Part shown: in pieces, positions 1 through 27,315 of the stretch
How the letters are laid out: every line of letters begins with the position of its first letter
How positions within the stretch are numbered: position 1 is the first letter of the stretch
Source of the DNA: Chiloscyllium plagiosum
Lineage: Eukaryota
Direction: 5' to 3'
NCBI RefSeq assembly: GCF_004010195.1
Contig: NC_057755.1
Coordinates: 2,673,804 to 2,737,803 of the forward strand
Length of the DNA: 64,000 nt
Program-made: the position numbers and the translations under genes
Notes under the pieces: generated by a model
Database searches by the model: none
Seen by the model: only the letters and a program-made list of their open reading frames with translations
Told to the model about the DNA's origin: nothing

Positions 1-254
1 GGAGCGGTGTAGCTGGGGTCAGAGGTCATGGAGGGTGGGAGGGGAGAGGTGTTGGGGCTGGAGAAGGTTACAGAGATAGGGAGGTGTATAGCAGGGTCAG
101 AGGTCATGAAGGTGGGAGGGGAGGGGTCTTAGGTCTGGAGGAAATTCGAGATTAATCCAGAAGCTCAGGTTCAATTCTTGCCACAGCACATTGCAGAATC
201 TGTCCTGAATATATGCTTGGAATTAAGAATATACTGATGACATTTTCATGGGAC

Positions 255-748
255 ATAGGACATAGAACATTACAGCGCAGTACAGGCCCTTTGGCCCTTG
301 ATGGTGCGCTGACCTGTGAAACCAATCTGAAGCCATGTAACCTACAGTATACCATTTTCATCCATATGTTTATTCAATGTCCATTTAAATACCCTTAAAC
401 TTAGTGAGTCTCCTATTGTTACAGGGAGTACGTTCCACGCCCCTACTACTCTCTGAGTAAAGAAACTACCTCTGACATCTGTCCTATATCTATCACCCCT
501 CAAGTTAAAGTTATGTCATTCGCTCTAGCCATGACCATCTGAGGAAAAAGGCTCTCATTGTCCACCCTATTGGATCCTGTGATTATCTTATATGTCTCAA
601 TTAAGTCACCTCTCAACCTTCTTCCTCATAAGACCTTCCCTCCTTACCAGGCAATGTCCTCGTAAATCTCCTCTGAACACTTTCCAAAGCTTCCACACAC
701 CTCCTATAATACGGTGACCAGAACTGCACAGAATACTCCAAGTGCAGC
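255..748 (-). mobile_element. CR1-type LINE 3' fragment
   Basis: Minus strand encodes a HLEYSVQFWSP-type ORF2 C-terminus and ends in a short CTATGT-type microrepeat tail. Confidence 0.8.
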
Positions 749-1102
749 TGTTAAAGTATAGATTTGAGATGGCCCAGGAAATCCCTTGTTGACTCAACCT
801 GTAAGGCTCTATCTTGGTTCGTCCCCAGAGATCGCACTCTTTGGTGGTCTGGAATAAAAAATAACCTCTTACAAACAATTTAGTTTAATTTTAGTCATCC
901 CCTTTATTTACTAATAGCATTACTGTTCGAACATAACACTGATACCTGTAAGATAAACTAACTGGGTTGAGGCAAATATTCTTAATTGCCTTACTCTCCC
1001 TGCCTGTCTGTTTTCTAATGTGTAGCAAATGTATTGTATAATTCAACATGGCATTTTAGTCTAAATGTTTAAGAACAAGCTTTAAGGCTATAGACATTCT
1101 CA
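749..1102 (-). mobile_element. ERV 3' LTR, partial (left arm), preceded by polypurine tract 1103-1114
   Basis: Minus strand reads AAAAGGATGGAA|TG downstream of the env stop. Homologous to 18505-18718. Distal end uncertain. Confidence 0.65.
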
Positions 1103-1140
1103 TTCCATCCTTTTGACATTTCATGACAACTACATTGCTT

Positions 1141-1347
1141 AGCTGAAAAATGTGTTGCTGGAAAAGCGCAGCAGGTCAGGCAGCATCAAAGGAGCAGGAG
1201 AATTGACATTTCGGGCATAAGCCCTTCTTCTGCTTATGCCCGAAACGTCGATTCTCCTGCTCCTTGGATGCTGCTTGACCTGCTGCGTTTTTCTAGCAAC
1301 ACATTTTTCAGCTCTGATCTCCAGCATCTGCAGTCCTCACTTTCTCT
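1141..1347. mobile_element. Penelope-like element terminal fragment arranged as an inverted pair
   Basis: 1141-1223 and 1232-1313 are inverted copies containing GGGCTTATGCCCGAAAC. Flanked by 14-bp TSD CAACTACAT(T/A)GCTT (1127-1140, 1348-1361). Empty site in right arm at ~18479-18492. Confidence 0.8.
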
Positions 1348-1382
1348 CAACTACATAGCTTATACAAGTGTAATTAGTCCAT

Positions 1383-3163
1383 TTAGTTGATTTGTATTCT
1401 CAATAAGTCAAGTGCATTCCCTGGCGAGTCATCATCCATAGGAGCAGAGTCTGAAAGATACTGGATTTCAGCATGAGAGTTCGCGCATGGAGGTACATGG
1501 GTAGACAAGGGTTGATTAACCAGCTTCCTCTTTGACTTTGGCGAAAAGCAATATACGGTCAATTCATGCATAAGCAGTTGACAATGTATATTCCTAGGAT
1601 GAGATCAAGGACAATCAGTACGTCCCACATGATCCATCCGCACAGCGACTATAGCCAGCAGGTAATACTTCATCCACGTGAATCAGATGGCGACTTGGTA
1701 GCTATCTTCCCTGCGTCTTGGCCCGTTTTGTTGATAACATCTGTGTCGTCCAAAATATCTTCTGAGAAATCATTGATGTAGGTGCAACACCGCGGGCCAA
1801 TGACTGAACAAACACTTCCTTCTTTAGCAAGGAGGACGTCTAGCACGAGCCGATTCTGAAGCATCATCATCCGGGTCTCCTGCAACTCTTTGTTCATCAG
1901 CTTCAAAGCGTGTGCAGTTGAATTGACAATCTTTGAATGTCATATGCAAGGTCACTTATCTGATCTAGGGCCATCTCACCACCCAAGCCAGGAAAAAGAC
2001 CTCCCAGCAACTTGGACCACCAGATTTGTTGATGGAAGAAGTTGTGTAAGTCCTGAATAGTTTTTCCTCTACTTTTTGTTCCGTTTAAAATCTCCTTCAG
2101 GTACCTAATGGTGGATGGTGAAAAGTGGTACGGTGTGTCCTGGGACACAATGTCCGTACCAGTTATTGGGTTAATATGGGTAGTCTTTGCTTTCGCATTG
2201 CCTATTAAGGCTAAAAGGACTGCCAAAGGTGCAGTTCTGTGAGTGAATGTTGAGTCCACTCAGAGCGAGAGCTGAATCTTGTAAACAGTGGGTGCTATCA
2301 AACCAAAGTGAATTAAACCGAATGGGTTTTTCCATCACAAATGAAGGATTGCATAAGTGGGTGAATCATATTTATACACTGTCCATCAGAATGATGGAAG
2401 TGTGAGCAGGTAACACATGAATCGTGGGTTTAGTTTGAATAAAGAAACTATTAGTAACAGAAGGAGAATTGGCAGGGCAGAGTATGTTTGGTCTTTCTTC
2501 ATCTTGAGCTGAAAAATGTATTGCTGGAAAAGTGCAGCAGGTCAGGCAGCATCAAAGGAGCAAGAGAATCGACGTTTCGGGCATAAGCCCTTCTTCATCT
2601 TTCCAGCTTGTTGTGTTTATTACAGCAGCTACTAAATACAGGAAATGTGTCAAGTTATTTCTATCAGTGGTTGTAGGTCAGATAGGAGAGGATTCCATCG
2701 AGAAGGTACAGGTGGGCAGTCTTATGGCAATCGGTGCCTTCGGGTTTGGTGATTTCGGTATTATGTGCTAAATTCTGTTATCTGTACGGTTCATTTTGAG
2801 AGGGGAACAGACAAGCATTTCAAAGTAACAGTTTTCGGTTGACAGAGTGGCTGAGGTTATGGAATTGTGCTATCTTATGATGACTGGCATAGAAGTGTTG
2901 CGAGGATGATAATAAGGTCGAGAGTGATGTTTGGATACACAATGTGAGTAGTTTAAATGAGTTTCAGCTGGGCAGCTGCATTCATGACTTCCGTGGTATT
3001 AGTACAGGTTTCATTTATATCGTCACATTGGGGTTGTCGCCGGTCTGAGATTTCACAGATGGGTTGGTTAGATTTAGGCGCATGTGTTTGGGTTGGTTTT
3101 CATTAGATGCCTGTATCAGTACTATCACTAAGACTGTGAGGGGGCACAAGCTTGCAATATCAT
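1383..3163 (-). pseudogene. env: Endogenous retrovirus env, left copy (gamma-type TM, disrupted)
   Basis: Signal-peptide-like [13 protein letters not shown]-end motif YPY*PNNWYGHCVPG, fusion peptide WWSKLLGGLFPGLGG, ISU LQNRLVLDVLLAKEG, CX6CC (CSVIGPRCC), TM and tail. Several stops and frameshifts. Confidence 0.92.
2506..2590 (-). mobile_element. Penelope-like terminal fragment inserted in left env
   Basis: Same family as 1141-1230. 11-bp TSD TTCTTCATCTT (2495-2505, 2591-2601). Absent from right env (~17299-17310). Confidence 0.8.
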
Positions 3164-4555
3164 TTGTAGACCATGTTGACTGTCCATCTACCTTTACTGC
3201 AGTTTCAGTTGTCAAAAGAACTTGATAAGGTCCTTTCCAGCGGGGACCCAATTTTTCATGATTAAAGTCTCTCTTTCAATAGTACATAGTCAACAGGGTT
3301 AATGTCTTTAAACTTTGGAGCTTTTTCTTGTTCCTTCCCTGGTACTCGATCGGCTTCTTTGACCTGTTAATGATCAGACTGCAATGCTTTGGTCAGCTTA
3401 ATCAGGTACCTGTGCATCTTTTCTGCCAGGACATGTACATCAACAGGTTGTTGGGTAGTTAATGGTGAAGACCAGGGAGTCTTCAGGGCCTTTCCATGTA
3501 TCACATTAGCTGCCGAGAATCCCGTCTTTTTCTGTGTCATGGTTCTCATGTTAACAAGGGCATTTGGGAGTACTTGCAACCAATGAAGGCCCGTTTCTTC
3601 TACCAACCTGTTTAGTTGACCTTTTAAGGTACCATTGACTCTTTCCACAATTCCCGTTGCTTGGGGATGGTTAGCACAATGGAATTTTTGATTCAAATTC
3701 AAAATCTTACATAGTTCCTTGTTTAGCTCCGCACAGAAGTGAGCGCCATTATCGGAAGAGATCGTTACTGGTGTTCCAAATCTAATATGATTTCCCTTAA
3801 CAGAATTTTACAAATAGTTGTTGCAGTCCAGTCAGTACAGGGATAAGTTTCAATCCATTTACTAAATATATCGATTATCACTAAGCAATACTTATAACAA
3901 TGACATCCAGGTAATTCCATAAAATTGAACTGGATAGTATCAAAAGCTGCACTTGGCAAGGGAGTTTCACTTGGTGGAACTTTACTGCTTTCCTGGGATT
4001 ATGCTTCGGACAAATGAGGAAATTTGCACCTGCGTGTTTTGATTTTTCTTGCAGATGGGGATTCCACCAAGTTTGAAGAATTCTGTCCACCATTCCCTCC
4101 TTACCTACATGTGTATGTGGATGAACAGAATAGGCGGAGATGAGTTGGGCAGACATGTCTGTCCTACCGGCATAACCCAAAGCTTATTGGAACTATTTAC
4201 ATAACAACCATGGTTCATCCATCTTTGCCTTTCCTCATCATAGGCATCCCCCTGGTGGGTCCGTAATTGTTCTAGGTCAGGCATGGTCAGGTTGTAAGAA
4301 GAGGAAATAGGAGAGTCTCCTTTTAGTTTCCTGTTGGTCATTTGAGTAACCATGTCTTTTTGCTCAAAAGCTGTTTCCTTAGCAGCTGCATCAGCGGCAT
4401 TGTTGCTTTCAGAGACAACGGAAGCGTCAGAGGAATGAGCATAACATTTAATAATTACCAATTAGGAGGGAAGTTGAATAGCACTGAGGAGATTAGCAAG
4501 ACAGGCAGCATTGAGTATAAGGGTTCCTGATGAGGTAAAGAAGCTGCCTCTGTTG
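3130..4555 (-). pseudogene. pol: ERV pol 3' part: RNase H C-terminus and integrase (left copy)
   Basis: VIIKCYAH...NNAADAAAK (RNase H), HxxxH...CxxC-like zinc finger, IDIFSKWIETYP, ISSDNGAHF, HPQATGIVERVNGTLK (DDE core), [14 protein letters not shown] (GPY/F). Frameshifted. Confidence 0.93.
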
Positions 4556-4702: not shown

Positions 4703-7700
4703 CTACTGGGGACTCGAACCTAATTACAACAAGGGCTTCTAATCTCAAAAAACTAAGGGGCCTCTAAACCCAACTGCTACAGGGGCCTCTAACCCCACAA
4801 AACACAGGGGTCTTTAACCCCAATTTCAGCAGGGGCGTCTGACTCCAGAAAACACAGGGGCCTCTAACGCCACTTACGATAGGGACCTCTAACCCACAAA
4901 GCACAGCGGCATCTAACCCCACATAACACAGGGCCTTCAAACTCCAATTATTACAGTGGTCTATAAACTAAATTACTGCAGGGCACTCTATACCCAATTA
5001 CTACGGGGGCCTCTAACCGCACAAAACACAAGCGGCTACTAAACCCAATTACTACAACGGCCTCTAACCTCAATTATTACAGAGCACTCAAATTCCAATT
5101 ACTACAGGGCACTCTCATCCCAAGTACTAAAGGGCACTCTAATACAATTATTACAGGGCACTCTAACCCCAACTATTACAGACAGCTCTAACCTCCATTA
5201 TGGCAATGGCCTCCAACCCTAATTACAACAGGGGCCTCAAACCCCACAAAGCATAAGGGACTCTAACCCCACTAAACATAAGGGCATCTAACCCCAAATA
5301 CTACACGGGGCTCTATCCTCAATTATTACCAGGGGTCTCAAACCCTACAAAACACAGGGGCCTCTAACCACAATTATAACAGGGGCGTCTCACCCCACAA
5401 AGCACAGGGGCCTCTAACCCCACACAACAAAGCAGCCTCAATCCCCAGTTACTATAGGGGGCTCAAAACCCACAAAACACAGGGGGAGGGGTCCAAAACT
5501 AATTACTACAGGGACATCTAACCCCAATTAATTCAGGGGATTCTAACCACAATTACTACAGGGCACTCTAAATCCACAAAGCACAGGAGTTTTTAAACCA
5601 CAACACACAGGTGCCTCTAACCCCAGTTACTACAGGGGGCTCTAACCCCACAAAACACAGTGGCTCAAGCCGCAATTACTACTGGGGGTTCTAATCTCAA
5701 TTACTACAGGGAATGCTAAACCCAATTACTACAGGGGCAACTAACCCCAACTCCTACAGGGCACTCTAACCCCACAAAGCACAGGGGCCTCTAACCCCAC
5801 AAAACACACCAGCCTCCAACCCCAATTATAACAGGAGCCTAAAACTCGACAAAACATAAGGGATTCTCACCCCACTAAACACAGCGGCCTCAAACCCCAC
5901 AACACACAGATGCCTCGAACCCCAATTATTACAGGGCACTCTAACCCCAATAATACAGCGAGCATAACCTCCATTATAACAGGGACCTCCAACCTCAATT
6001 CGAACAGGAGCCTCAAAACCCACAAAGCATAGGGGTCTCTAACCCTACTAAACACAGGGGCCTCTAACCCCAAATACTACACCGGGCTCTATCCTCAATT
6101 ACTATCAGAAGTCTCAAACCCCACAATACACAGGGGCCTCTCACCACAATTAATACAGGGATGTCTAACCCCACAAAGCACAAGAGAGTCAAACCCGAGT
6201 TACTATAGGGGGCTCAAAACCCACAAAACACAAGGGGGGTCTAAAACCAACTACTACAGGGGCCTCTAACACCATCAAAACACCAAAACAGGAATTGAAC
6301 CCAGGTCTCTAGCACTGTGAGGCATCAGAACTAACCACTGTGCCACCATACTACCAGGGACTGCAACCCGATTTACTACAGGGGCCTCTAACCCCACAAA
6401 GCATACGGGCCTCTAACCCCACAAAGTATAGAGGCCTCTAAACCCAATTACTACAGGGGTGTCTAACCCCGTAAAGCACAGGGGCCTCGAACCCCAAATA
6501 CTACACGGGGATCTATTCTCAATTACTACCTGGCGTCTCAAACCCCACAAAACAGAGGGGCCTCTAACCCCAATTAATACAGGTGCGTCTAACTCCACAA
6601 AGCACAGGGGCCTTCAACCCCAGTTACTTCAGGGCCTCACATACCACAAAACACGGGGGGGGGGGGGGTGTCTAAAACCAATTACTACAGGGGCCTCTGA
6701 CCCCATTTCTTACAGGGGACTGTAACAGTACAAAACACAGGGGCCTCTAACCCCAAATACTACAGGGCACTGTAACCCCACAAAAACAGGGGCCTCTAAT
6801 ACCACAAAACACAGGGGCCTCCAACCCCAATTAATACAGGGGATTCTAACCACAATTACTACAGGGCACTCTAAATCCACAAAGCACAGGAGTTTCTAAA
6901 CCACAACACACAGGAGCCTCTAACCCCAGTTACTATAGGGGGCTGTAACCCCACAAAACACAGCGGCTCAAGCCGCAATTACTACTGGAGGTTCTAAACT
7001 CAATTACAACAGGGGAGTCTAAACCCAATTACTACAGGGGCAACTAACCCCAATTCCTACAGGGCACTCTAACCCCACAAAGCACAGGGGCTTCTAACGC
7101 CACAAAACACACCAGCCTTCAATCCCAATAACAACAGGGGCCTTAAACTCAACAAAACATAGGGGATTCTCACCCCACTAAACACAGCGGCCTCGAACCC
7201 CAATTATTACAGAGCACTCTAACCCCAATTACTACAGCGAGCTCTAACATCCATTATGACAGGGGCCTCCAACCCCAATTACAACAGGGGCCTCAAACCC
7301 CACAAAGCAAAGGTGTCTCTAACCTCACTAAACACAGGGGCGTCAAACCCCACAAAGCATAGGGGTCTCTAACCTCACTAAATATAGGGGCCTCTCACCC
7401 CACATAAAACAGAGTCCCCAAACCCCGCAAAACAGGGGCCTGTAACCCCACAAAAACAGGGGCCTCTAATCCCAAATACTATACGGGGCTCTATCCTCAA
7501 TTACTACAAGAGGTCTCAAACCCCACAAGGCACAGGGGCCTCTAACCCCACAAAATACAAGAGCGACAAACCCCAGTAACTATTGGGGGCTCAAAACCCG
7601 CAAAACACAGTGGGGTCTGAAACCAATTACTAAAGGGGCCTCTGACACCGAGACGAGAATTGAACCCAGGTCTCTGGCCCAGTAAGATAACAGTGCTATC

Positions 7701-10497
7701 GACTGTGCCACCATAAATAGAGGAGATCAAATTTGCTTCATACAGGGCCTCTAACCTCAGGAAATACAGGTGTCACTAATCCCACAAAGCACAGGAGCTC
7801 TAACCCCACAATGCACAGGGGCCACCAATCCCACAAAGCACAAGAGCCTCGAACCCCAAATACTGCACGCGGCTCTATTCTCAATTACTACCGGGAGTCT
7901 CAAACCCCACAAACCACAGGTGCCTTAACCCCAAATACTACATGGGGCTCTATTCTCAACTACTACGAGGGGTCTCAAACCCCCACAAAACACAGGGGCC
8001 GCTAACCCCAATTAATACAGGGGTGTAAACCCCACAAAACACACCAGCCTCCAACCCCAGTTACTAGAGCGGCCTCAAAACCCACAAAACACGGGTGGGG
8101 GGTGTCTAAAACTAATTACTACAGTGGCCTCTGACCCCAGTTATTATAGGGGCCTCAAACACCACAAAACACAGGGGCCTCTAACCCCAATTACTACAGG
8201 ACATCTAACCCCACAAAACACAGGGGCCTCCAACCCTAGTTACTACACGGGATTCTAACCACAATTACGACAGGGGTTTCGAACCCCTATTACTACAGGG
8301 GCCTCTAACCCCAATTACTACAGGGGCCTCTAAAGCCACAAAACATGGGGGCCTCGAATCACACAAAACACAGGGACCTCTAAACCCGGAGGTCTCTAAC
8401 CCCAATTACTACAGGGGCCTTGAAACCCACATAACACACGGCCTCTAACCTCAGTTACTACAAGGGACTCTAATTCCACTAAAAACCAGGGCCTCCAACC
8501 CCAATTAATACAGGGGATTCTAACACAATCACTACAGGGCACTCTAAACCCAAAAACCACAGGAGTCTCTAACCCCATAAAACACAGGGGCCTCTAATTT
8601 GAATTACTACAGGGGGCTCTAAGCTCAGTTGCTATTGGGGCCTCTAACCCCAATTCCTACAGGGGCCTCAAAACCCAAAAACACGGAGGTGGGGGGATCG
8701 GGGATCTAAAACCAATTAGTACATTGGCCTCTAACCCCCTCAAAACGCAGGGGCCTCTGACCCCAATTACTACAGGGGACTCTAACTCCAATCACTACAG
8801 GGCAATCCAACCCCAATTACCACAGAGGCTTCTAATCCCATCAAACACAGTGGCTTCTAACCCCAGTTAAAACAGGGGTCGCTAACCTCAATTACAGCAG
8901 GGACTCGAACCCTAATTACACCAGGGGCTTCAAACCCCCACAAAGCACAGAGGCCTCTACCCCACAAAACACAGAGACCTCTAACTAGGCTTGCTACAGA
9001 GCACTCAAACCGCAATTACGACAGGGGCCTCTAACCCCAGAAAACATAAGGGCCTCTAACCCCATTTACGACAAGGGACTCTAATCCCAATTACTACAGG
9101 AGCGTCTAACCCCACAAAATATAGAGGTGTCTAACCCCACAAAACACAAAGGGGGCTAAAACCAATTATTACAGGGCCTCTAACCTCAATTACTACAGTG
9201 TACTCTAACCCCACAAAACACAGGGGCCTCTGACCGCAATTACTACATGGGACTCTAATTCCATTTACTACAGGGCACTCTAACCCCAATTCCTACAGGG
9301 GCCTCTAATTCCATGAAACATACGTGCCTCTAACCCCAACTATTACAGGGCACTCTAACCCAATTACTACAGCAGCCTCTAACACCACAAAACACAGGGG
9401 ACTCTAACCCCACTAAACACACGGGCCTCCAAACCCAATTAATACAGGGGATTCTAACTCCTATTACTACAGGGGGCCCTAACCCCACAAAACACAGGGG
9501 GCTCAAACTCCAATCCCTACAGGGGCCTCTAAGCCTAATTCCTACAGGGGCCTCTAACCCCAATTACTACAGGAGGCCTCTAACCTCAGGAAACACATGG
9601 GCCTCGAACCCCACAAAACACTGGGGTCTCAAACCCCATAAAACACAGGGCCTCTAAAACCACTTACATCAGGGGCGTCTAACCCGACAAAACATAGAGG
9701 CCTCTAACCCCAAATACTATACGGGGCTCTATCCTCAATTACTACCAGGGGTCTCAAACCCCACAAAACACAGAGGCCTCTAACCCCAATTATACAGGGA
9801 CATCTAACCCCGCAAAGCACAGGGGCTTCAAAACAGAGGGGATGCTAACGCCATAAAACACAGGGGCCTCTAACTCCAATTACTACAAGGGCCTCTAACC
9901 CCACAAAGCACAGTGGCCTCTGTGCCCACAAAACACAAGGGCCTCGAACCAAAATTACTACAGAGCACACTAAACCCAATTCCTACAGGGGGCATATAAT
10001 CCCACAAAACACAGGGCACTCTAACCCCAATTACCACAGGAGTGTCTGACCCCAATTACTAGAGGGGGCACTAAACCCACAAAACACAGTGTCCTCTAAC
10101 CCCATTTACTACAGGGGCCTTTAACCCCACAAAGCATAGGGGCCTTTAACCCCATACCTTAAAGGGGCCTCTAACCCCAGGAAACATAAGGGCCACTAGC
10201 TCCATAAAACACAGAGGCCTCTAACCCCAATTAACACAGGGGGCTCTAACGTCAATTACTACGGGCGGCCTCTAACCCCAAAAAGCACATGGGCCTCTAA
10301 CCACAATTACTACAGGGCACTTTAAAAACAATTAGTACAGGGGCCTATAAAACCACTAAACAAAGGAGCCTCCAACAACAATTAATACAGGGGAATCTAA
10401 CCCCAGTTACTACAGGGCACTTTAACCCCAATTGCAGCAGGGGTCTCTAACCCAATTACTACAGGGGACACTAACCTGAAAAAGCATAGGGGCCTCT
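4703..10497 (+). repeat. ~25-bp minisatellite with two interleaved unit types (GGGGCCTCTAACCCCAATTACTACA / GGGGCCTCTAACCCCACAAAACACA)
   Basis: Directly visible degenerate tandem array of ~5.8 kb running into an assembly gap. Confidence 0.95.
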
Positions 10498-10997
10498 NNN
10501 NNNNNNNNNNNNNNNNNNNNNNNNNNNNNNNNNNNNNNNNNNNNNNNNNNNNNNNNNNNNNNNNNNNNNNNNNNNNNNNNNNNNNNNNNNNNNNNNNNNN
10601 NNNNNNNNNNNNNNNNNNNNNNNNNNNNNNNNNNNNNNNNNNNNNNNNNNNNNNNNNNNNNNNNNNNNNNNNNNNNNNNNNNNNNNNNNNNNNNNNNNNN
10701 NNNNNNNNNNNNNNNNNNNNNNNNNNNNNNNNNNNNNNNNNNNNNNNNNNNNNNNNNNNNNNNNNNNNNNNNNNNNNNNNNNNNNNNNNNNNNNNNNNNN
10801 NNNNNNNNNNNNNNNNNNNNNNNNNNNNNNNNNNNNNNNNNNNNNNNNNNNNNNNNNNNNNNNNNNNNNNNNNNNNNNNNNNNNNNNNNNNNNNNNNNNN
10901 NNNNNNNNNNNNNNNNNNNNNNNNNNNNNNNNNNNNNNNNNNNNNNNNNNNNNNNNNNNNNNNNNNNNNNNNNNNNNNNNNNNNNNNNNNNNNNNNN
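10498..10997. other. Assembly gap (500 N); other gaps at 14392-14446 and 23309-23693
   Basis: Runs of N. Confidence 0.99.
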
Positions 10998-11142
10998 CAC
11001 CATTAGTCCCACAAAGTCACTCAGAGTTTCATTAAGGGTTAAACCGAAGTCAAAACCATATGCCTTTGCCAGTCATCTTACACTAGTCAAAAAAAATGGA
11101 TTCCCATGGTTCTCAAAGTGCAAATTAAATAGATAGCGTCTC

Positions 11143-12795: not shown

Positions 12796-13164
12796 ACTCC
12801 TTTTTTTAATTTTTCTTTCCCCCCCCCCCCCCACTACTGCCTAACTGCGGTAGTGTTTATTTTTCCCCAGCACCAATATGTGTTGGCAGGTGTGAGACAC
12901 AGTAAAAAACACCATGTGCAAGACTCTTTAGTCAGTTTCCACAACCAGGAAGAAAGGAAACACCCGAGTGGCCTGTGACAAGCAGTGCCCTTCTCTGTCA
13001 GCCGGGGCTGCCTGATTGGACCAGATTAACAGTCCCAATCAGGGAAGTCACTTTCTATGACCTCGTTGTAATCACTGCAGATAGCAAATGTATTAAACGC
13101 TCTACCTGTCTGACAGAATTAAACTCCAATTGCTAATATTCTCTGGCAGAGAGTGTATTAAACG

Positions 13165-13670
13165 GAGTTTTTGTAATTGGAGTTGGAGACTGCTGTGTTT
13201 TGTGTGGTAAGAGGTCCCTGCATTTTGTGGGGTTACCCGCCCCTGTAGTAATTGGGGTTCGAGGCCCCTGTAGTAATTGTGGTTGGAGGGCCCTGAAGTA
13301 ATTGAGGTTAGAGTGCCCTGTAGTAATTGGGGTTAGAGACCCCTGTGATTTGAGGGTGTAATGGCTATTGTGCTTTGTGGGGTTAGAGGTTCCTGTAATA
13401 ATTGGGGTTATAGCCTCTTCGTATTTGGGGTTAGAGGCCCCTTAATTAATTGGTGTTAGAGGCCCCTGTATTAATTTGGGTTAGAGGAACCTGTGATTTG
13501 TGGGGTTAGAGACCCCTGTCGTAATTTTGGTTAGAAACCCCTGTAGTAATTGGGGTTAGAGTCCCCTGTAGTAATTGGAGTTAGAATCCCCTGCAGTAAT
13601 TGGGTTATAAGTCCCTGTGGTTAGTGGGGTTAGAGGCCCTTGTAGTATTTGGGGTTCGAGTCCCCTGTAG
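13165..13670 (-). repeat. Inverted copy of the 25-bp minisatellite
   Basis: TGTAGTAATTGGGGTTAGAGGCCCC units. Same satellite/unique junction (13650-13700) as 4681-4720. Confidence 0.93.
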
Positions 13671-14990: not shown

Positions 14991-15899
14991 CGTCTGCATG
15001 ATTATTTTAAAACTGCACCCAGATTCGTCCCGCCATCATACTATGGTAATGGCTGCCTGTAAGATAACTTCACATAAAAATGTAGAAGTCTATATCGCCC
15101 ATTCTGCGGTATCCTTGCTTACCTCTAAACGTACTCAACACCTTACTGTGGTTCGTCTGAGATTTCATTGCTTCAGAAACGGCTTCTCTCCTTTAAATAC
15201 TGCTCTAACATTAATCCCGCTACATTGTGCAGGAAGAAGCTCTTGAACTGCATGATCGTCCCCATGATTTTTATCTATACTGATTCCCACGATGCTTTTG
15301 GTTGTGCCCATTATTTTTGTTAAGTCTGGCAGCAGCGTGGCTTCCTTACCTCATCTGGAACCCGTATCCACAATGCTGCCTGTGTTGCTAATCTCCTCAG
15401 TGCCATTCAACTTCCCTCTCAATTGGTAATTTTGAAAAGTGTTGCTCATTCCTCTGATACTTCAGTTGTCACTGAAGGAACAACGCCGCTGATGCAGCTG
15501 CTAAGAAAGCAACTCTGCTGCAAAAAAAAGGTTAATCGAATGATTAATAGGAAACAAAAGGGAGACTCTCCTATTTCCTCTTCTGACACCCTAACCAAGT
15601 CTGACCTAGAACAAATACGGACCCATCAGGGGGACGCACATGATGAGGAAAGGCATAGATGGATGAACCGTGGTTGTTATGCAATAGTTGGGTTATGCCA
15701 GTAGGACAGACATGTTTGCCCGATTCACTTCTGCCTATTCTAGTTGATTATGTTCACGCACATACACATGTAGGTAAGGAGGGAATGGTTTACAGAATTC
15801 TTCAAACTTGGTGGAATCCCCACCTGCAAGAAAAAAGCAAAACACGGAGCTGCAAATTCCATAATTTGTCAAAAGCAAAATCCCGGAAAAGGAGTAAAG

Positions 15900-16042
15900 T
15901 GTTGTTAAGACGGACCCGCGGGGTCCCGTCTTTGCGTGTTCTTTCGGAAGGAGAGACTCACACTGGCAACTATGGTTAGACGCAGACAGCAGTTTATTCA
16001 CAGAATCTTAACTGGTACAACGAATCTACAAGCATGCATTTG
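15900..16042 (-). mobile_element. Foreign LTR-like 3' end replacing the integrase core
   Basis: No counterpart in the left arm. Minus strand has AATAAA and ends ...CTTAACAACA. Confidence 0.5.
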
Positions 16043-16458
16043 GGAGAAGAAACGGGCCTTAATTGGCTGTAAGTTCTCCAAATTGCCCTTTTTAATATGA
16101 GATCTCTGGCACAGAAAAAGACGGGATTCTCGGCAGCAGAAGTGATACATGGAAAGCCCCTGAGAACTCCCTTGTCTGCACCATTAACTGCCCAACACCT
16201 TGTTGATGTGTATGTCATGGTAGAAGAGATGCACAGATACCTGATTAAGCTAACCAAAGCATTGCAGTCTTATCATCAACAGGTCAAAGAAGCCTATCAA
16301 ATACCAGGGAAGGAAGAATAGATAGCTCTAACATTTAAAGACATTAACCCCGGTGACTACTTACTATTGAAAGACTGAAGTCATGAAAAATTAGGCCCCC
16401 ACTGGAAAAGTTCTTCTCACAATTTAAAATGCACTAAAGGTAGAAGGACATTCAACAT

Positions 16459-16730
16459 TAGATTACTTACAGTGTGGAAACAGGCCCTTCGGCCCAACAA
16501 GTCCACACCAAACCTCCGAAGAGTAACTCACGCAGACCATTTCTCTCTTCAGGTAACTCTACGGGAAATTCAGCATGGCCAATTCACCGAACCTGCACAT
16601 TTTTGGACTGTGGGAGGAAACCCACACAGACACGGGGAAAATGTGTAAACTCCACGCAAACAGTTGAGGTGAGAATTGAACTTGGGTTTCTGGCACTATG
16701 AGGCAACAGTGCTAACCACCGTGCCGCCCA
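16459..16730 (-). mobile_element. tRNA-derived SINE inserted at the pol/env junction of the right arm
   Basis: Head GGGCGGCACGGTGGTTAGCACTG and TAATCT tail on minus strand. Empty site in left arm at ~3170. Confidence 0.85.
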
Positions 16731-16741
16731 CGCGTCTACAA

Positions 16742-18457
16742 GTTACATTGCAAGCTTGTATCACCTTTACAGTCTTAGTATTAGTACTGATACAGGCATC
16801 CAATGAAAACCCAACCCACGTACATGCGCCCAAATGTAACCAACCCATCTGTGAAACCTCAGACCGGCGAGAACCCCAATGTGACTGTATAAATGAAACC
16901 TGTACCAATGCCATTGGAAGTCATAAATGCAGCTGCCCAGCTGAAACTCATTTAAACTACTCACACTGTGTATCCAAACATCACTCTTGACCTTATTGTC
17001 ATCCTCGCAACACTTCTATGCCAGTCATCATGAGATGGCACAATTCCATAACCTCATCCGCTTTGTCAACCGAAAACTGTTACTTTGAAATACTTGTCTG
17101 TTCCCCTCTCAAAATGAACTGTTCAGATTGTAGTATTGAGCACATAGTACTGAAATCACCAGTCCCAAAGGCACCTATTGCCACGAGACTGTATCTTTTC
17201 GACGGAATCCCCTCCTATCTGACCAACCGCCACTGACAGAAATACCTTCACATGTTTCCTGTATTCTGTAGCTGCTGTAATGAATAAGACAAGCTGGAAA
17301 GATGAAGATAGACCAAAAGTACTCTGCACTGCCAATTCTCCTTCTGTTACTAATAGTTTCTTTATTCAACCTAAACACCTGATCTATGTGTTATCTGCCC
17401 ACTCTTCCATCATTCTGATGTACAGTGTATAAATAGGACTCACAAACTTATGCAATCCCTCATTTGTGATGGAAAAACCTATACCGTTTAATACACTTGT
17501 ACAATCAGGCGTTTGAGAGCACCAACTTTTACAAGATTCAGCTCTCGCTCTGAGTGGACTCATCATTCATTCACAGAAGTGCACCCTTGGAACTCCTTTT
17601 TGCCTTCATTGAGCATGCAAAAACAAAGCCTACCTATATTTACCCAATCACTGGCATGGACATTTTACTCTCGTATACACACGGTACCACTTTTCACCCT
17701 CCACCGTGAAGTACCTGAAGTAGATGATGAATGCAATGCCCACCAATATGTGAATCAGTGCGGAACAAAAGGTAGAGGAAATACAAAACGGGACTTACAC
17801 AACTTCTACCTTCAACAAATCTGGTGGTCCAGGTTGCTGGGAGGTCTTATTCCTGGCTCGGGTGGTGAGATGGCCCTAGATCAGACCTTGCGTATGACAT
17901 TGAAAGATTTGCCAACTCAACTGCACACGCTCTGAAGCTGGTGAAGAAAGAGTTACAGGAGACCCGGAATGATGATGCTTCAGAATCGGCTCGTGCTAGA
18001 TTCCCTCCTTGCTAAAGAAGGAAGCGCTTGTTCAGTTATTTGTCCGTAGTGTTGCACCTGCACTAATGATTTCTCAAAAGATATTCTGGACGACACAGAT
18101 GTTATCAACAAAACGGGTCACGACGCAAGGAAGATACCTGCCGCACCGTCATCCGATCCATGGGGATGGAGTGCTACCTGCTGGCTATGGTAGCTGTGTG
18201 AATGGATCATGTGGGACATACTGATAGTCCTTGATCTCATCCGAGGAACATACATTGTCATCCGCTTATGCATGAAATGGATCGTACAACGCTTTTCACC
18301 TAAGCCAAAGAAGAATCTGGTTAATCAAACCTTGTCTACCCATGTACCTCCATGCCCGAACTCCCATGCTGAAATCCAGTATCTTTCAGACTCTGCTCCT
18401 ATGGATGATGACTCGCCAGGGAATGCACTTGACTTATTGAGAATACAAATCAACTAA
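16742..18457 (+). pseudogene. env: Endogenous retrovirus env, right copy (disrupted)
   Basis: ITFTVLVLVLIQA signal peptide, EGF-like Cys motif, basic cleavage-like RGNTKR|DL, WWSRLLGGLIPG, LQNRLVLDSLLAKEG, TM, and tail ending LLRIQIN*. Stops and frameshifts. Confidence 0.92.
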
Positions 18458-18516
18458 ATGGACTAATTACATTTGTACAAGCTATGTAATTGTCATGAAA
18501 TGACAAAAGGAGGGAA

Positions 18517-18718
18517 CGAGAAAGTCTATAGCCTTAAAACTTGTCCTTAAACATTTAGACTAAAATATAATGTTGAATGATAAAACACATATGCTGCACA
18601 TTAGAAAACAGACAGGTAGGGAAGATAAGGAAATTAAGAACATTTGCTTTAATCCAGTCAGTTTAGCTTCTAGGTATCAGTGTTATGTTGTAATGGTGAT
18701 GCTATAAGTAATTAAAGG
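18517..18718 (+). mobile_element. ERV 3' LTR start (right arm) after PPT 18505-18516
   Basis: AAAAGGAGGGAA PPT. Truncated where left-arm 296-900 is missing. Confidence 0.65.
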
Positions 18719-18869
18719 AAGCCAAAGAGCCTGTACTGCGCTGTAATCTTCTATGTCCTATGCTCTATGAAAACGTCATCAGTATATTCTTAATTTCAAG
18801 CATATATTCAGGACAGATTCCGCAATCTGCTAGAGCAGGAATTTAGTCTGAAGGTCTGGATTAATCTTG

Positions 18870-20020
18870 AATTTCCTCCAAACCCAAGACCCCTACCCCA
18901 CTACCTCCATGACCTCTCACCCTAGCTACACGCCTCCATATCTCTGTAACCTCCTCCAGCCCCTACACCTCTCCCCTCCCATCGGCATGATCTCTGACCC
19001 CAGCTACATCCCTCCCTATCTCTGTAACCTTCTCCAACCCATACACCTCCTCCCAGTCCCTGCAACTCTCTATTTCTGTATAATCTTGTCACAATCTCCA
19101 GCCCAACATGCATCTTATCTCTTCCACCTCCTTCACTAAAGTCAAACCGAGCTGATCTTGTTAATATTGATTTTGCTTCATGCATCCCTTGTGCAATGTA
19201 AACTTTGTGCTTCACTTTATCAAAGCACCCTATGGTCTGTATGCCCTTGCTTCTTATGATCTAATTGTACTGCTCACAAACAAAGCTTTTCACTGTCCTT
19301 AGGTACACCTGACTATAATAAATCAAATCAAATATTCCAGCCACAATGCATCTCCCTATCTCTGTATCCATTGTGAGCACATACACTCACCCTATCTTTA
19401 TCACTTCCTCGAGCACCTACATCCTTCCCTTTTTCCATAGCTTCTTCCAGCATTTACATCTCTCTCTATCTCTGGAACCTCTATATTTACCGATCTCTAT
19501 AAAATTCTCCAGCAACTCCATCCCTCCTTATATATAGAACCACTTCCATCATCTACATCATTCCTTATCTCTGAGGTATACTCCATCCTCCACGCCACTT
19601 CCTATCTTCATCACCTCCTCCATTGCATACACACCTTCCTGTCACTTTAATCGTCCCCACCCCAAGAGCGTCTCTAATTCTGTAATTTCATCCAGCACCA
19701 ATGTCCATCTGTGTAACCTCCTCCAGCATCAATAAATGCCATTATCTCTGAAAACTCCTCCAGCTCTCACACATCTTCCAATCGCTGCCATCTCCTCCAG
19801 ATACTCCTGACCTCTATATCTCGGCAAACTCCTCCCATCCCTGCCACTCCCAGCATATCTGGAAATTCTTCCATCCCCTACATCAGTCCATATTAATGTT
19901 ATATCCTCGATTCCCGCAACTCTCCCTATCACTGTGTCATCTTCCAGCCTGTATACCATTCCTTATCGCTGTAACTTCTTACAGCAACTACATCATTTCC
20001 GGTCTCTGTATCATCCTCCA
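18870..20020 (+). repeat. Degenerate pyrimidine-rich tandem repeat (core CCCTATCTCTGTAACCTCCTCCAGC), interrupted by a LINE 3' end with (AAATC)n tail at ~19200-19333
   Basis: Core recurs many times. Its reverse complement forms positions 1-150. Confidence 0.75.
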
Positions 20021-22589: not shown

Positions 22590-23725
22590 TGAGACACAAG
22601 GTTTCAATGCCAGCCTAAGAGGTATAGTTAGTAAGTTTGCAGATGACACCATAATTGAAGGTGTCGTGGACAGCGAAGAAGTTTACCTCAGATTGCAACG
22701 GTATCTTGATCAGATGGGCCAATTAAACTGAGGAGTTTAATTTAGATAAGGTCCGAGGGAGTGTTGCTGAACAAACCGATCTTGGACTGTAGGTTCATAA
22801 CTCCTTGAATGTGGTGTCTCATGTAGATAGGATAGTGAAGAAGGCGTTTGATATGTTTTCCTTTATGGGTCAGAGTGTTGAGTATAGGAGTTGGGAGGTC
22901 ATGTTCCGGCTGTACAGGACATTGGTTAGGCCACTGTTGGAATATTGCGTGCAATTCTGGTCTTCTTCCTATTGGAAAGATGTTATAAACTTGAAAGAGT
23001 TCAGAAAAGATTTACAAGGAAATTGCCAGGGTTGGAGGATTTGAGCTATTGGGAGAGGCTGAACAGGCTGGGGCTGTTTTCCATGTATCATTGGAGGCTG
23101 AGGGGTGACCTTATAGATGTTTACAAAATTATGAGGGGTATGGATAGGCTAAATAGGCAAAGTCTTTTTTCCCTGTGGTGGGGAAATCTAGAACTAGAGG
23201 GCAGATGTTTAGGGTGAGAGGGGAAAGATATAAAAGAGATCTAAGGGGCAACTTTTTCACTCAGAGGGTGGTATGTATATGGAATGAGCTGCCAGATGAA
23301 GTGGTGGANNNNNNNNNNNNNNNNNNNNNNNNNNNNNNNNNNNNNNNNNNNNNNNNNNNNNNNNNNNNNNNNNNNNNNNNNNNNNNNNNNNNNNNNNNNN
23401 NNNNNNNNNNNNNNNNNNNNNNNNNNNNNNNNNNNNNNNNNNNNNNNNNNNNNNNNNNNNNNNNNNNNNNNNNNNNNNNNNNNNNNNNNNNNNNNNNNNN
23501 NNNNNNNNNNNNNNNNNNNNNNNNNNNNNNNNNNNNNNNNNNNNNNNNNNNNNNNNNNNNNNNNNNNNNNNNNNNNNNNNNNNNNNNNNNNNNNNNNNNN
23601 NNNNNNNNNNNNNNNNNNNNNNNNNNNNNNNNNNNNNNNNNNNNNNNNNNNNNNNNNNNNNNNNNNNNNNNNNNNNNNNNNNNNNNNNNNNNNCTGCTGT
23701 ACATTTCGATGACTGTATGACTCTA
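22590..23725 (+). mobile_element. CR1-type LINE 3' fragment (spans gap)
   Basis: SKFADDT, LEYCVQFWS, RLRGDLIDVYKIM, (ATGACT)-type tail. Confidence 0.9.
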
Positions 23726-25724: not shown

Positions 25725-27315
25725 TAATGGTAAGGTCCGAGTGAGTGTTGCTGAACAAAGAGACCTTGGAGTGCAGGTCCATTGCTCCTTGAAAGTAGAA
25801 TCGCAGGGAGATAGGATTGTGAAGAAGGCATTTGGTATGCTTTCTTTTATTGGTCAGAATATTGAGTATAGGAGTTGGGAGGACATGTTGCAGATGTACA
25901 GGACATTGGTTAGGCCACCTTTGGAAGATAGACTGCAGTTCTGGTCTCCCTCCTTTCAGTGGGATATTGTGAAATGTGAAAGGGTTCAGAAAGCATTTAC
26001 AAGCATATTACCAGGGTTGGAGGATGTGAGCAATAGGGAGAGGCTGAATAGACTGTGGTTGTTTCCCCTGGCGTGTCAGAGGCTGAGGGGTGACCTTATG
26101 GAAGTTTGTAAAATCATGCGATGCATGGATAGGGTAAATAGACAAAGTCTTTTCTCCGGGGTGCGAGAATCCAGAACTAGAGGGCATAGGTTTAGGATGA
26201 GAGGGGCAAGAGATAAAAGGGAGCTGAGGGGCAAGGTTTTCATGCAGAGGGTGATACGTAAATGGAATGGTCTGCCAGAGAAAGTGGTGGAGGCTGGTAC
26301 AATTACAGCATTTAAAGATATTTGAATGGGTATATGAAAGGAAAGATTCAGTGGGATATGGACTAAGTGCTGGCAAGTGGAATTGGATTGCGTTGGGATA
26401 TCTGGTCGGCATGGACAAGTTGGACAGAAGGGTCTGTTTCCCTGCTGTCCATCTCCCTGACTTAATGTTACATTCCACTAGAATTTTCCTTCAGTTTACC
26501 TGCTTCCGCTTATTCAGGCCCCCTTGTATTTCTCCTAAGTCCATTCTTCAGTGTTTTTCTGGTTACCTAGTAACCTTCTTCTTCCCTGTCTAATCCTTGT
26601 TTACTCACTCTTCTTCATCTTTACTAGGTGTTCCACATCCCTTGACACCTAAGGTTCCTTCTCCCTCTCATTCCCTTCCTTGCCTCAGTGGGACAAACCT
26701 ATCCAACACCATCAGCAAATGCTCCCTATACCACCTCCACATATCCATCCCGCATTTCCCTCGAGTACATCTGTTCCCACTTTAGGCCCCCTCCCGTTCC
26801 TGCCTAGTAGCATTGTCATTTCCCCTCCCAAACTGAACATTTTCCCATACAGTGTGCTCCTATCCCTCCACATGACTACAGCAAAAGTAATGAAAGAACA
26901 GGGAGATCTTGGGGACATGTCCATAGATCACTCTTAGTTGTCACCCAGGCTGATAGGTTTGTTAAGAAGGCGTTATGCTGTTTGGCTGTCATTAGCAGGG
27001 GATATAAGAGCTGCAAGGTTATGCTGCAGCTCAATCAAGCCCTGGTTACAGCACACTTGGAATATTGTGTTCACTTCTGGTCACCTCATTAGAGGAAGGA
27101 TGTGGGAGCTTTAGAGATGGTGCAAAGGAGATTTAGCAGGATGCTGTCTGGATTGGAGGGCATGTCTAATGAAGAAAGTTTGAGGGAGCTAGGGATTTTC
27201 TCATTGGAGCGAAGGACGATAAGAAGTGATTTCATGGAGGTGTACAAGATGATGAGAGGCACCGATGGAATGAACTGTGGCAGACATTTTCCTGGGGCCG
27301 AAATGGCTTTCTCAA
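25725..27315 (+). mobile_element. Two CR1 3' fragments (25725-26460, 26893-27315) flanking a minus-strand CR1 piece (26470-26890)
   Basis: QRDLGVQVH...RLRGDLMEV motifs on plus strand. Confidence 0.8.

Follow-up and report, generated by a model that had tools for sequence, protein, structure and literature searches.

Our analysis of a 64,000-nucleotide stretch of Chiloscyllium plagiosum contig NC_057755.1 (the whole of which is called the window below) revealed two dead, inverted integrase–env 3′ fragments of one endogenous retrovirus (ERV) family, in which the mature surface subunit (SU) of the envelope glycoprotein (Env) would start with an epidermal growth factor (EGF)-type module. An older, long form of this env, present elsewhere in the same genome, would have comprised a signal peptide, a degenerate cysteine unit resembling a calcium-binding EGF (cbEGF) domain, a Thr-rich mucin-like stretch, an EGF_3 domain, a six-Cys cbEGF-like domain opening with D-x-D-E-C, and then the remainder of SU. 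The short form seen in the window would then have arisen when about 540 nt lying between a pair of similar C2-x4-C3 segments were lost, likely by template switching or recombination; its product is a single predicted eight-Cys hybrid that now stands at roughly 70 places in the genome and is also found under two further organism labels. The EGF cassette itself would have been taken from a host transcript. We regard this explanation as a whole, with an EGF-type SU module, an older long form, a short form derived by deletion and a cassette of host type, as probable.

An earlier reading of the same DNA (the original prediction) had reported an EGF-like motif in both copies, and re-reading confirmed it at the positions given. 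The motif and the env remnants that hold it are as follows:

16880..16969, plus strand: right-copy EGF-like motif, reading CDCINETCTNAIGSHKCSCPAETHLNYSHC, inside the stop-free frame 16673-16987.
2939..3027, minus strand: left-copy EGF-like motif, 12 residues, a 1-nt gap relative to the right copy, then GSHECSCPAETHLNYSHC.
16736..16987, plus strand: 5′ part of the right env, with a signal-peptide remnant and the eight-Cys N-terminal SU module.
16991..18600, plus strand: rest of the right env in several frames, from the SU core to the membrane anchor and tail.
1400..3131, minus strand: left env in several frames, from the signal core to the transmembrane subunit (TM).

The right-copy motif is laid out as CDC-INET-C-TNAIGSHK-C-S-C-PAETHLNYSH-C; in the left copy the 1-nt gap shifts the frame between TNTT and GSHE. 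In both arms a hydrophobic signal-peptide core is present (LVLVLIQA at 16775-16798 on the right, LVIVLIQA at 3108-3131 on the left), and the motif starts about 27 codons past it, that is, at the very N-terminus of mature SU. The left core lies directly downstream of the integrase C-terminal domain, MLVIN_C, on the same strand. Thus, as had been proposed, the motif lies within env, after MLVIN_C and the signal core and ahead of the CXXC, immunosuppressive domain (ISD) and CX6CC motifs.

Specifically, the SU of the right copy has CVIC at 17387-17398, a CXXC motif that recurs in other genomic copies, followed by PNHWHGH at 17643-17663 (PNNWYGH at 2150-2170 on the left) and TKR at 17783-17791. A fusion-peptide-like WWS[KR]LLGG comes next, as WWSRLLGG at 17822-17845 (right) and WWSKLLGG at 1999-2022 (left), and then the ISD, LQNRLVLD, at 17978-18001 (right) and 1838-1861 (left). 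The CX6CC motif is intact in the left copy (1784-1810, CSVIGPRCC) and has an internal stop in the right copy (18029-18055), which ends with a membrane-anchor/tail frame at 18194-18457. The left TM frame, 1673-1939 on the minus strand, matches Pfam TLV_coat with 26.4 bits against a cutoff of 22.5, and in a phmmer comparison with solved structures the TM frame of a related genomic copy, L031 (3561-4265), matched filovirus GP2 (E 3.7e-13) and syncytin-2 (E 4.7e-4). Since CXXC, ISD, CX6CC, the TLV_coat match and the TM resemblance to filovirus GP2 and syncytin-2 all agree, the ERV family, judged from its sequence, carries a gamma-type (covalent, CXXC/CX6CC) Env. As a separate observation, the L031 TM is much nearer to filovirus GP2 than to the syncytins or the TM of murine leukemia virus (MLV), which score E 4.7e-4 to 0.14 in the same comparison.

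Both window env copies are non-functional relics. The right env has a stop at 16988-16990, further frameshifts, the stop within CX6CC and an insert of about 273 nt; the left env has the 1-nt gap within the EGF-like motif, among other breaks. The original prediction that one frame continues through SU, the ISD and CX6CC therefore stands when frames and both copies are combined but fails in either copy alone.

Taken alone, the window motif yields EGF matches below threshold only. Among PDB sequences the 63-aa window segment has five matches at E ≤ 10, each of them to an EGF module and led by a fibrillin cbEGF pair (E 0.012); language-model look-alikes fall in EGF_CA/EGF_3 clusters with a score of 0.90 (a lead only), and every sub-threshold match of the segment is to an EGF-type family or chain. 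The strict Asx-hydroxylation pattern C-x-[DN]-x4-[FY]-x-C-x-C, which we take to be that of PROSITE ASX_HYDROXYL, is absent from the window motif, where His occupies the aromatic site. With His allowed, the six-frame translation of the 64-kb window holds a single C-x-[DN]-x4-[FYH]-x-C-x-C, against a chance expectation of 0.015 per mononucleotide shuffle (200 shuffles), or 0.005 if the following Cys is included. The calcium-binding start [DN]-x-[DN]-[EQ]-C1 is absent from the window motif as well; at this point the right copy reads CDCINE.

Relatives with a six-Cys cbEGF-like module, the long form, are present in the same genome; the original prediction had named intact relatives with a full six-Cys EGF as a check. 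The long form was recognised from own-genome matches that fell in two pieces, about 600 nt from each other, in a single open frame. Long-form ORFs take in the signal peptide, both EGF modules and the SU that is shared with the short form, in L031 as a single frame of 357 aa; its order is signal peptide, Cys unit (..CNLPVCNISDGLNLQ.DCINGICVN..), a 68-aa Thr-rich stretch, CPTCHPDATCRNKTNNLGVECQCNHGYTGNGIGASGC, the six-Cys module and shared SU. The six-Cys module of another copy, L037, reads NDDECIIFPTAPSEDRICQLHETCINTVGSYECSCPAETHLSYSHC. Thr makes up 32% of the 68-aa mucin-like stretch, and the open reading frame (ORF) holds 11 N-x-S/T sequons. Searching the genome with the long-specific insert gave 45 matches (79 candidates) at about 25 places. 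Integrase frames lie upstream and TM frames downstream of the long-form loci, and the shared SU segment adjoins the insert in 36 of 37 records, which argues that these loci are env rather than host exons. Within L031, positions 1944-2370 (residues ~42-184), spanning the N-terminal Cys unit and the Thr-rich stretch, have no recognisable relative: they matched only EGF_STAB1-2 in Pfam, at E 0.05-0.08, and the ESM Atlas held no usable match for the long-form N-terminal unit.

The two downstream modules of the long form, as a pair, match metazoan multi-EGF proteins. Pfam EGF_3 (PF12947, cutoff 28.5 bits) is above cutoff in two of the five long-form ORFs (L031, 34.9 bits; L034, 35.0), below it in L032 (26.9) and L033 (23.0) and undetected in L035; this domain is absent from the short form of the window. 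A phmmer search of 1.84 billion representative proteins with the 95-aa EGF pair returned 62 matches at E ≤ 1e-3, nine of them at ≤ 1e-10, the best at E 1.7e-18, with identities of 29-51% and with several single stretches covering both modules. Each of the 12 matches inspected is a multi-EGF protein that combines EGF_3 with EGF_CA and/or cEGF; amphioxus proteins, a coral ADGRE1-like protein, a choanoflagellate protein and a plant kinase are among those named. In a MAFFT alignment the ERV pair stays in register with host tandem units, including the linker GNGIG-x-SGC-x-D-x-DEC. The PROSITE EGF_CA pattern, in the form used here, is complete in four distinct long-form places, and four distinct places have a calcium-binding start of the type NDDEC, NNNEC or NDDDC. 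An AlphaFold2 (AF2) model of the pair, built on an alignment of 24 rows (11 ERV and 13 host EGF), has a predicted local distance difference test (pLDDT) score of 78 and two β-hairpins per module; the six cysteines of the cbEGF-like module are in EGF spacing, and its two modelled hairpins have a pLDDT of 65-81. All seven Foldseek matches of this model at E ≤ 1e-3 are tandem EGFs (uromodulin, NELL1, NELL2 and EMR2), uromodulin with 33% identity over 84 columns, and CD97 and Notch1 EGF11-13 fall just below the threshold group. A PDB profile match to ADGRE5 (E 1.1e-40, alignment A3) was discounted as not independent, with 13 of the 24 rows coming from host EGF proteins. By these features the predicted cassette is of the metazoan extracellular type, as in E-type adhesion G protein-coupled receptors, uromodulin and NELL-like proteins.

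How the short form relates to the long one can be read from their junction. Short-form copies do not align with the long-form pair until residue 64/65, in the C2-C3 loop, after which identity is 55-76%, and the window's right motif corresponds from ETC on to C3-C6 of the long-form cbEGF module. The part of the short form upstream of this point matches the first Cys unit of the long form. The two forms differ by about 540 nt, which the short form lacks. In the long form the missing segment is bordered by two similar 18-nt segments, identical at 13 of 18 positions and each encoding N-x-x-C-x-N; the short form holds one copy. The eight-Cys short module is thus best read as a hybrid EGF that would join the N-terminal half of the first unit to C3-C6 of the cbEGF. 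This long-form homology bears out the proposed origin from an EGF- or cbEGF-type module without its own C1-C2. The further proposal that C1-C2 had simply been trimmed has to be revised: in place of the lost part stands the N-terminal half of the first unit, in its own right similar to a degenerate cbEGF start, and the EGF_CA profile aligns with copy L029 from profile position 1 (over DFSEW..., 26.4 bits against a cutoff of 27). Likewise, phmmer aligns SDQLKLQCVCMYDTC.. of copy L016 with a fibrillin cbEGF over the whole N-terminal half of the latter (E 6.3e-4 for fibrillin-1, and 7.5e-4). "DINE", put forward as the calcium-binding start of a cbEGF, would then be a product of the junction, because the first unit supplies I-N and the cbEGF supplies E-T, joined by the deletion. 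Its D is peculiar to the left copy, 23 of 30 short-form loci reading CDC, and a true D-x-D-E-C is found in the long form only.

For the direction of change we compared 48 copies (20 long and 28 short) over 566 columns, leaving out duplicates and records shorter than 420 nt from the 70 with a match. In the midpoint-rooted tree the long and short forms are reciprocally monophyletic and about 22% apart at the DNA level, and such a tree gives no direction of change. The simplest account of the junction is that the short form arose by deletion, presumably through recombination between EGF-like repeats or a switch of template from one to the other. The opposite course, in which a short eight-Cys module was ancestral and the long form came from an insertion of about 540 nt, agrees with the unrooted pair of monophyletic clades and with the larger number of short-form copies. 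We nevertheless consider it highly improbable: the insertion would have to bring exactly the D-x-D-E-C start, C1 and C2, completing half a cbEGF in register, and also to add an EGF_3 upstream in the canonical tandem order, whereas a one-step deletion between similar 18-nt segments accounts for the same facts. As a side observation, two long-form-like loci 16 kb apart on one contig (C8:81241314-81241890 and C8:81257936-81258512; L064-L070) are the most diverged copies, with 53-56% protein identity to L031 and many stops, and they pair on a long branch of the tree.

The short form makes up a sizeable family. A search of the 3.56-Gb assembly with the 105-aa right-copy frame gave at least 149 matches (150 candidates scored; the first look had 44,708 candidates, many of them from the first 21, insert-derived query residues), and a hand count among the matches listed put the module at roughly 70 places. 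The motif is present in all 30 short-form loci fetched, and contigs of DNA sequencing runs under three organism labels span it; one RNA run gave three reads, touching only the last 40 nt of the stretch. At the aromatic position, Tyr or Phe stands in nine of the 30 loci, which thus match the Asx pattern, and His in 13; in the remaining eight the pattern is otherwise broken. Nine Tyr/Phe-bearing copies are in the tree, and seven of them make up a clade that is sister to the remaining short-form copies. The proposed replacement of Tyr by His holds up. At position 16922 the T of TAT (Tyr) accounts for most of the contig word depth in three runs (402.6 of 454.7, 132.8 of 194.3 and 446.8 of 488.5), and on these sequences His is therefore the derived state of the window's subclade.

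Several results, beside the undirected tree, weigh against our interpretation. The window segment is below the Pfam gathering cutoffs (hEGF 18.9 against 29.3 bits, EGF_CA 14.7 against 27), and none of 12 other short-form segments reaches any gathering cutoff, the best being EGF_CA at 26.4 against 27; 11 of the 12 match at least one EGF-type family at E ≤ 1. The second long-form module taken alone gives only 14-17 bits for EGF_CA (PF07645), and the long-form pair sequence alone had no match among PDB sequences at E ≤ 0.01. The good AF2 model of the pair leans on 13 host EGF rows of 24, while a model of the 318-aa long-form N-terminal SU, built on 10 ERV rows, has a pLDDT of 30 and is unusable. 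The C5-C6 loop (PAETHL-YSH) is without the usual G-[FY]. Stops and frameshifts break both window copies and every other copy read, so that no intact expressible frame was found among them. No host donor of the cassette was found in the shark's own genome, where by their coordinates and query ranges the matches of the long-insert query (45 of 79 candidates) and of the EGF-pair query (88 of 138) correspond to long-form or short-form ERV copies, in a search whose first look is insensitive to distant EGF exons; nor was a donor found in the protein libraries, the best outside identity being about 45%. Finally, the function that we propose below is argued by analogy only.

Some of these points would suit a chance or convergent Cys-rich SU N-terminus, sharing no descent with EGF domains: the window and the 12 other short-form segments have only Pfam matches below cutoff, Cys-rich peptides often graze EGF profiles, and the pair alone lacks a PDB sequence match. 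We judge this very improbable and largely refuted by the long form, given that EGF_3 is above cutoff in two of five ORFs, that the match at E 1.7e-18 was obtained among 1.84 billion proteins with stretches covering both modules and all 12 inspected proteins being EGF proteins, that the pair model folds as tandem EGFs, and that homology links the window motif to the cbEGF half of the long form. Of the checks proposed with the original prediction, support from EGF hidden Markov models thus failed for the window and the 12 short-form segments and was obtained for the EGF_3 of the long form in two of five ORFs; structure prediction likewise succeeded for the long-form pair as tandem EGFs and failed for the 318-aa SU; and the search for a host donor gene was negative in the own genome and the protein libraries. 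Word-indexed protein searches with the long-form ORF (near lengths) and with the EGF region and the TM ORF (longer lengths) returned nothing at E ≤ 1e-3, which is weak evidence.

Because the cassette is of a metazoan extracellular type, the most economical view of its origin is that a host transcript was captured, and we infer this as the most likely one. Alternatively, a genuine EGF cassette might not derive from the host of this lineage, being instead an old, vertically inherited feature of the Env clade or a gift of another virus. The missing donor in the shark genome would suit that idea, as would best outside matches that are invertebrate proteins with only 41-45% identity, and the DNA distance of about 22% between the long and short clades, which implies that the cassette is old. 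On the other hand, EGF_3-cbEGF tandems with the linker GNGIG-x-GC-x-D-x-DEC are typical of metazoan extracellular proteins, and EGF goes unmentioned for retroviral Envs in the envelope literature searched, with no occurrence of "EGF" in the main text of a survey of anamniote gamma-type Envs (bioRxiv 10.1101/2021.11.23.469661). We therefore consider a source outside the host unlikely and retain host capture.

The comparison with metazoan proteins bears both on the origin and on a possible function. The set compared (uromodulin EGF I-II, ADGRE2/EMR2, ADGRE5/CD97, NELL1/2, Notch EGF11-13 and fibrillin cbEGF) consists of EGF_3-cbEGF tandems that share with the ERV pair the Cys spacing, the core C-x-N-x-x-G-S-Y-x-C-x-C, the linker and the modelled fold. 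The ERV modules differ in an identity of only about 20-45%, in an atypical C5-C6 loop and in their place within a viral glycoprotein, and in the short form of the window the calcium-binding start and C1 are not those of a cbEGF. In the nearest solved relatives, tandems of cbEGF and EGF_3 bind proteins, and by analogy with them the cassette of the active virus would most likely have been an N-terminal add-on for attachment or receptor binding. The mucin-like stretch may have acted as a glycosylated spacer or shield. A mucin-like domain is carried by the receptor-binding subunit of filovirus GP, whose GP2 makes it a TM-related class I fusion protein; in the long form the Thr-rich stretch is similar in its predicted glycosylation and differs in its position in the protein.

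Among known Envs, the closest counterpart in general plan is the gamma-type Env of class I ERVs, with which the family shares the position after pol, the signal peptide, CXXC in SU, ISD and CX6CC in TM, and a TM related to filovirus GP2 and syncytin-2. It differs in that SU here opens with EGF-type modules, joined in the long form by the mucin-like stretch, where gammaretroviruses have their receptor-binding region. MLV Env chimeras displaying EGF at the SU N-terminus were reportedly engineered by Cosset et al. in 1995. In such engineered Envs, too, a module of EGF fold comes right after the signal peptide of a gamma-type SU, but they are man-made and display the 53-aa growth factor EGF, whereas those of the ERV occur naturally, belong to the EGF_3/cbEGF matrix or adhesion type and have become fixed in a germ-line family. 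One report describes an engineered MLV with EGF at the Env N-terminus, GFP-EMO virus, that replicates and that loses the EGF insert by deletion on passage (PMC544597). Because the N-terminus of MLV SU thus tolerates an EGF fold, and an EGF insert there was lost on passage, these viruses also argue for a role in attachment or receptor binding. Host-type coding sequence in a retrovirus with a gamma-type Env has a further precedent in amphibian viruses of this kind, which according to the main text of the anamniote survey carry a host-type OGFr domain (bioRxiv 10.1101/2021.11.23.469661); in the present family, unlike what that text describes, the host-type sequence is fused in frame within Env, at the SU N-terminus. 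A fuller history, in which a host EGF_3-cbEGF cassette and a mucin-like stretch were acquired, used as a working receptor-binding module, streamlined to the hybrid and spread to dozens of germ-line places under at least three host labels, is one that we offer tentatively, as possible rather than likely.

The ERV fragments lie in the first 19 kb of the window as two inverted pieces of one retroviral element, 86-91% identical to each other (88.9% in the SU segment used for the tree), and each represents the 3′ part of pol running into env. Their remaining features are as follows:

~93-4460, minus strand: left ERV arm.
~15320-18920, plus strand: right ERV arm.
3018..4461, minus strand: left pol 3′ end, with an integrase core remnant (3370-3807) and the integrase C-terminal domain (3018-3275).
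15324..16460, plus strand: right pol 3′ end with integrase remnants, the inverted counterpart of 3272-4359.
16461..16733, no strand assigned: insert of about 273 nt, in the right copy only, which interrupts the env start region and has a tRNA-derived look like that of a short interspersed nuclear element.

The left integrase C-terminal domain matches Pfam MLVIN_C (E 3.6e-11, 43 bits against a cutoff of 29.2), and the left core remnant is below cutoff for Pfam rve (17.9 bits). Residues derived from the 16461-16733 insert are also found on contigs L002 (C97927) and L003 (C40327), with protein identities of 95% and 90%; because the same insert-derived residues are present, these two are duplicates or haplotigs of the right-copy locus and not independent integrations. 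Most of the gap between the arms is occupied by satellite arrays of 25-bp period (4758-10405 and 13145-13670), giving a palindrome-like arrangement of ERV 3′ part, satellite and ERV 3′ part that could be real or an effect of assembly. At 10397-11136 all six frames are open for about 180-218 codons, and the whole window contains 940 N; this segment is probably a masked or low-complexity stretch. Farther along, a direct repeat of about 430 nt (22747-23172 and 25731-26157) is 81% identical with a spacing of 2984 nt.

In line with the original prediction, a full-text literature search, with most subscription journals outside its coverage, found no description of an EGF module in a natural retroviral Env, which suggests that a natural gamma-type ERV Env with a host-type EGF cassette is new against the literature searched. 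For annotation, EGF-like matches beside ERV pol or env remnants in this genome should be taken as viral and not as host exons. The long and short forms together would illustrate how, within a viral gene, recombination between EGF repeats can shuffle domains. If our reading is true, the SU N-terminus, long used by vector engineers, was exploited likewise in nature, and the family would be a natural counterpart of the EGF-display Envs. Point change and the swapping of env are regarded as the main sources of diversity in retroviral receptor-binding regions; a host protein-interaction module set in frame in SU would represent a different route to new receptor usage.

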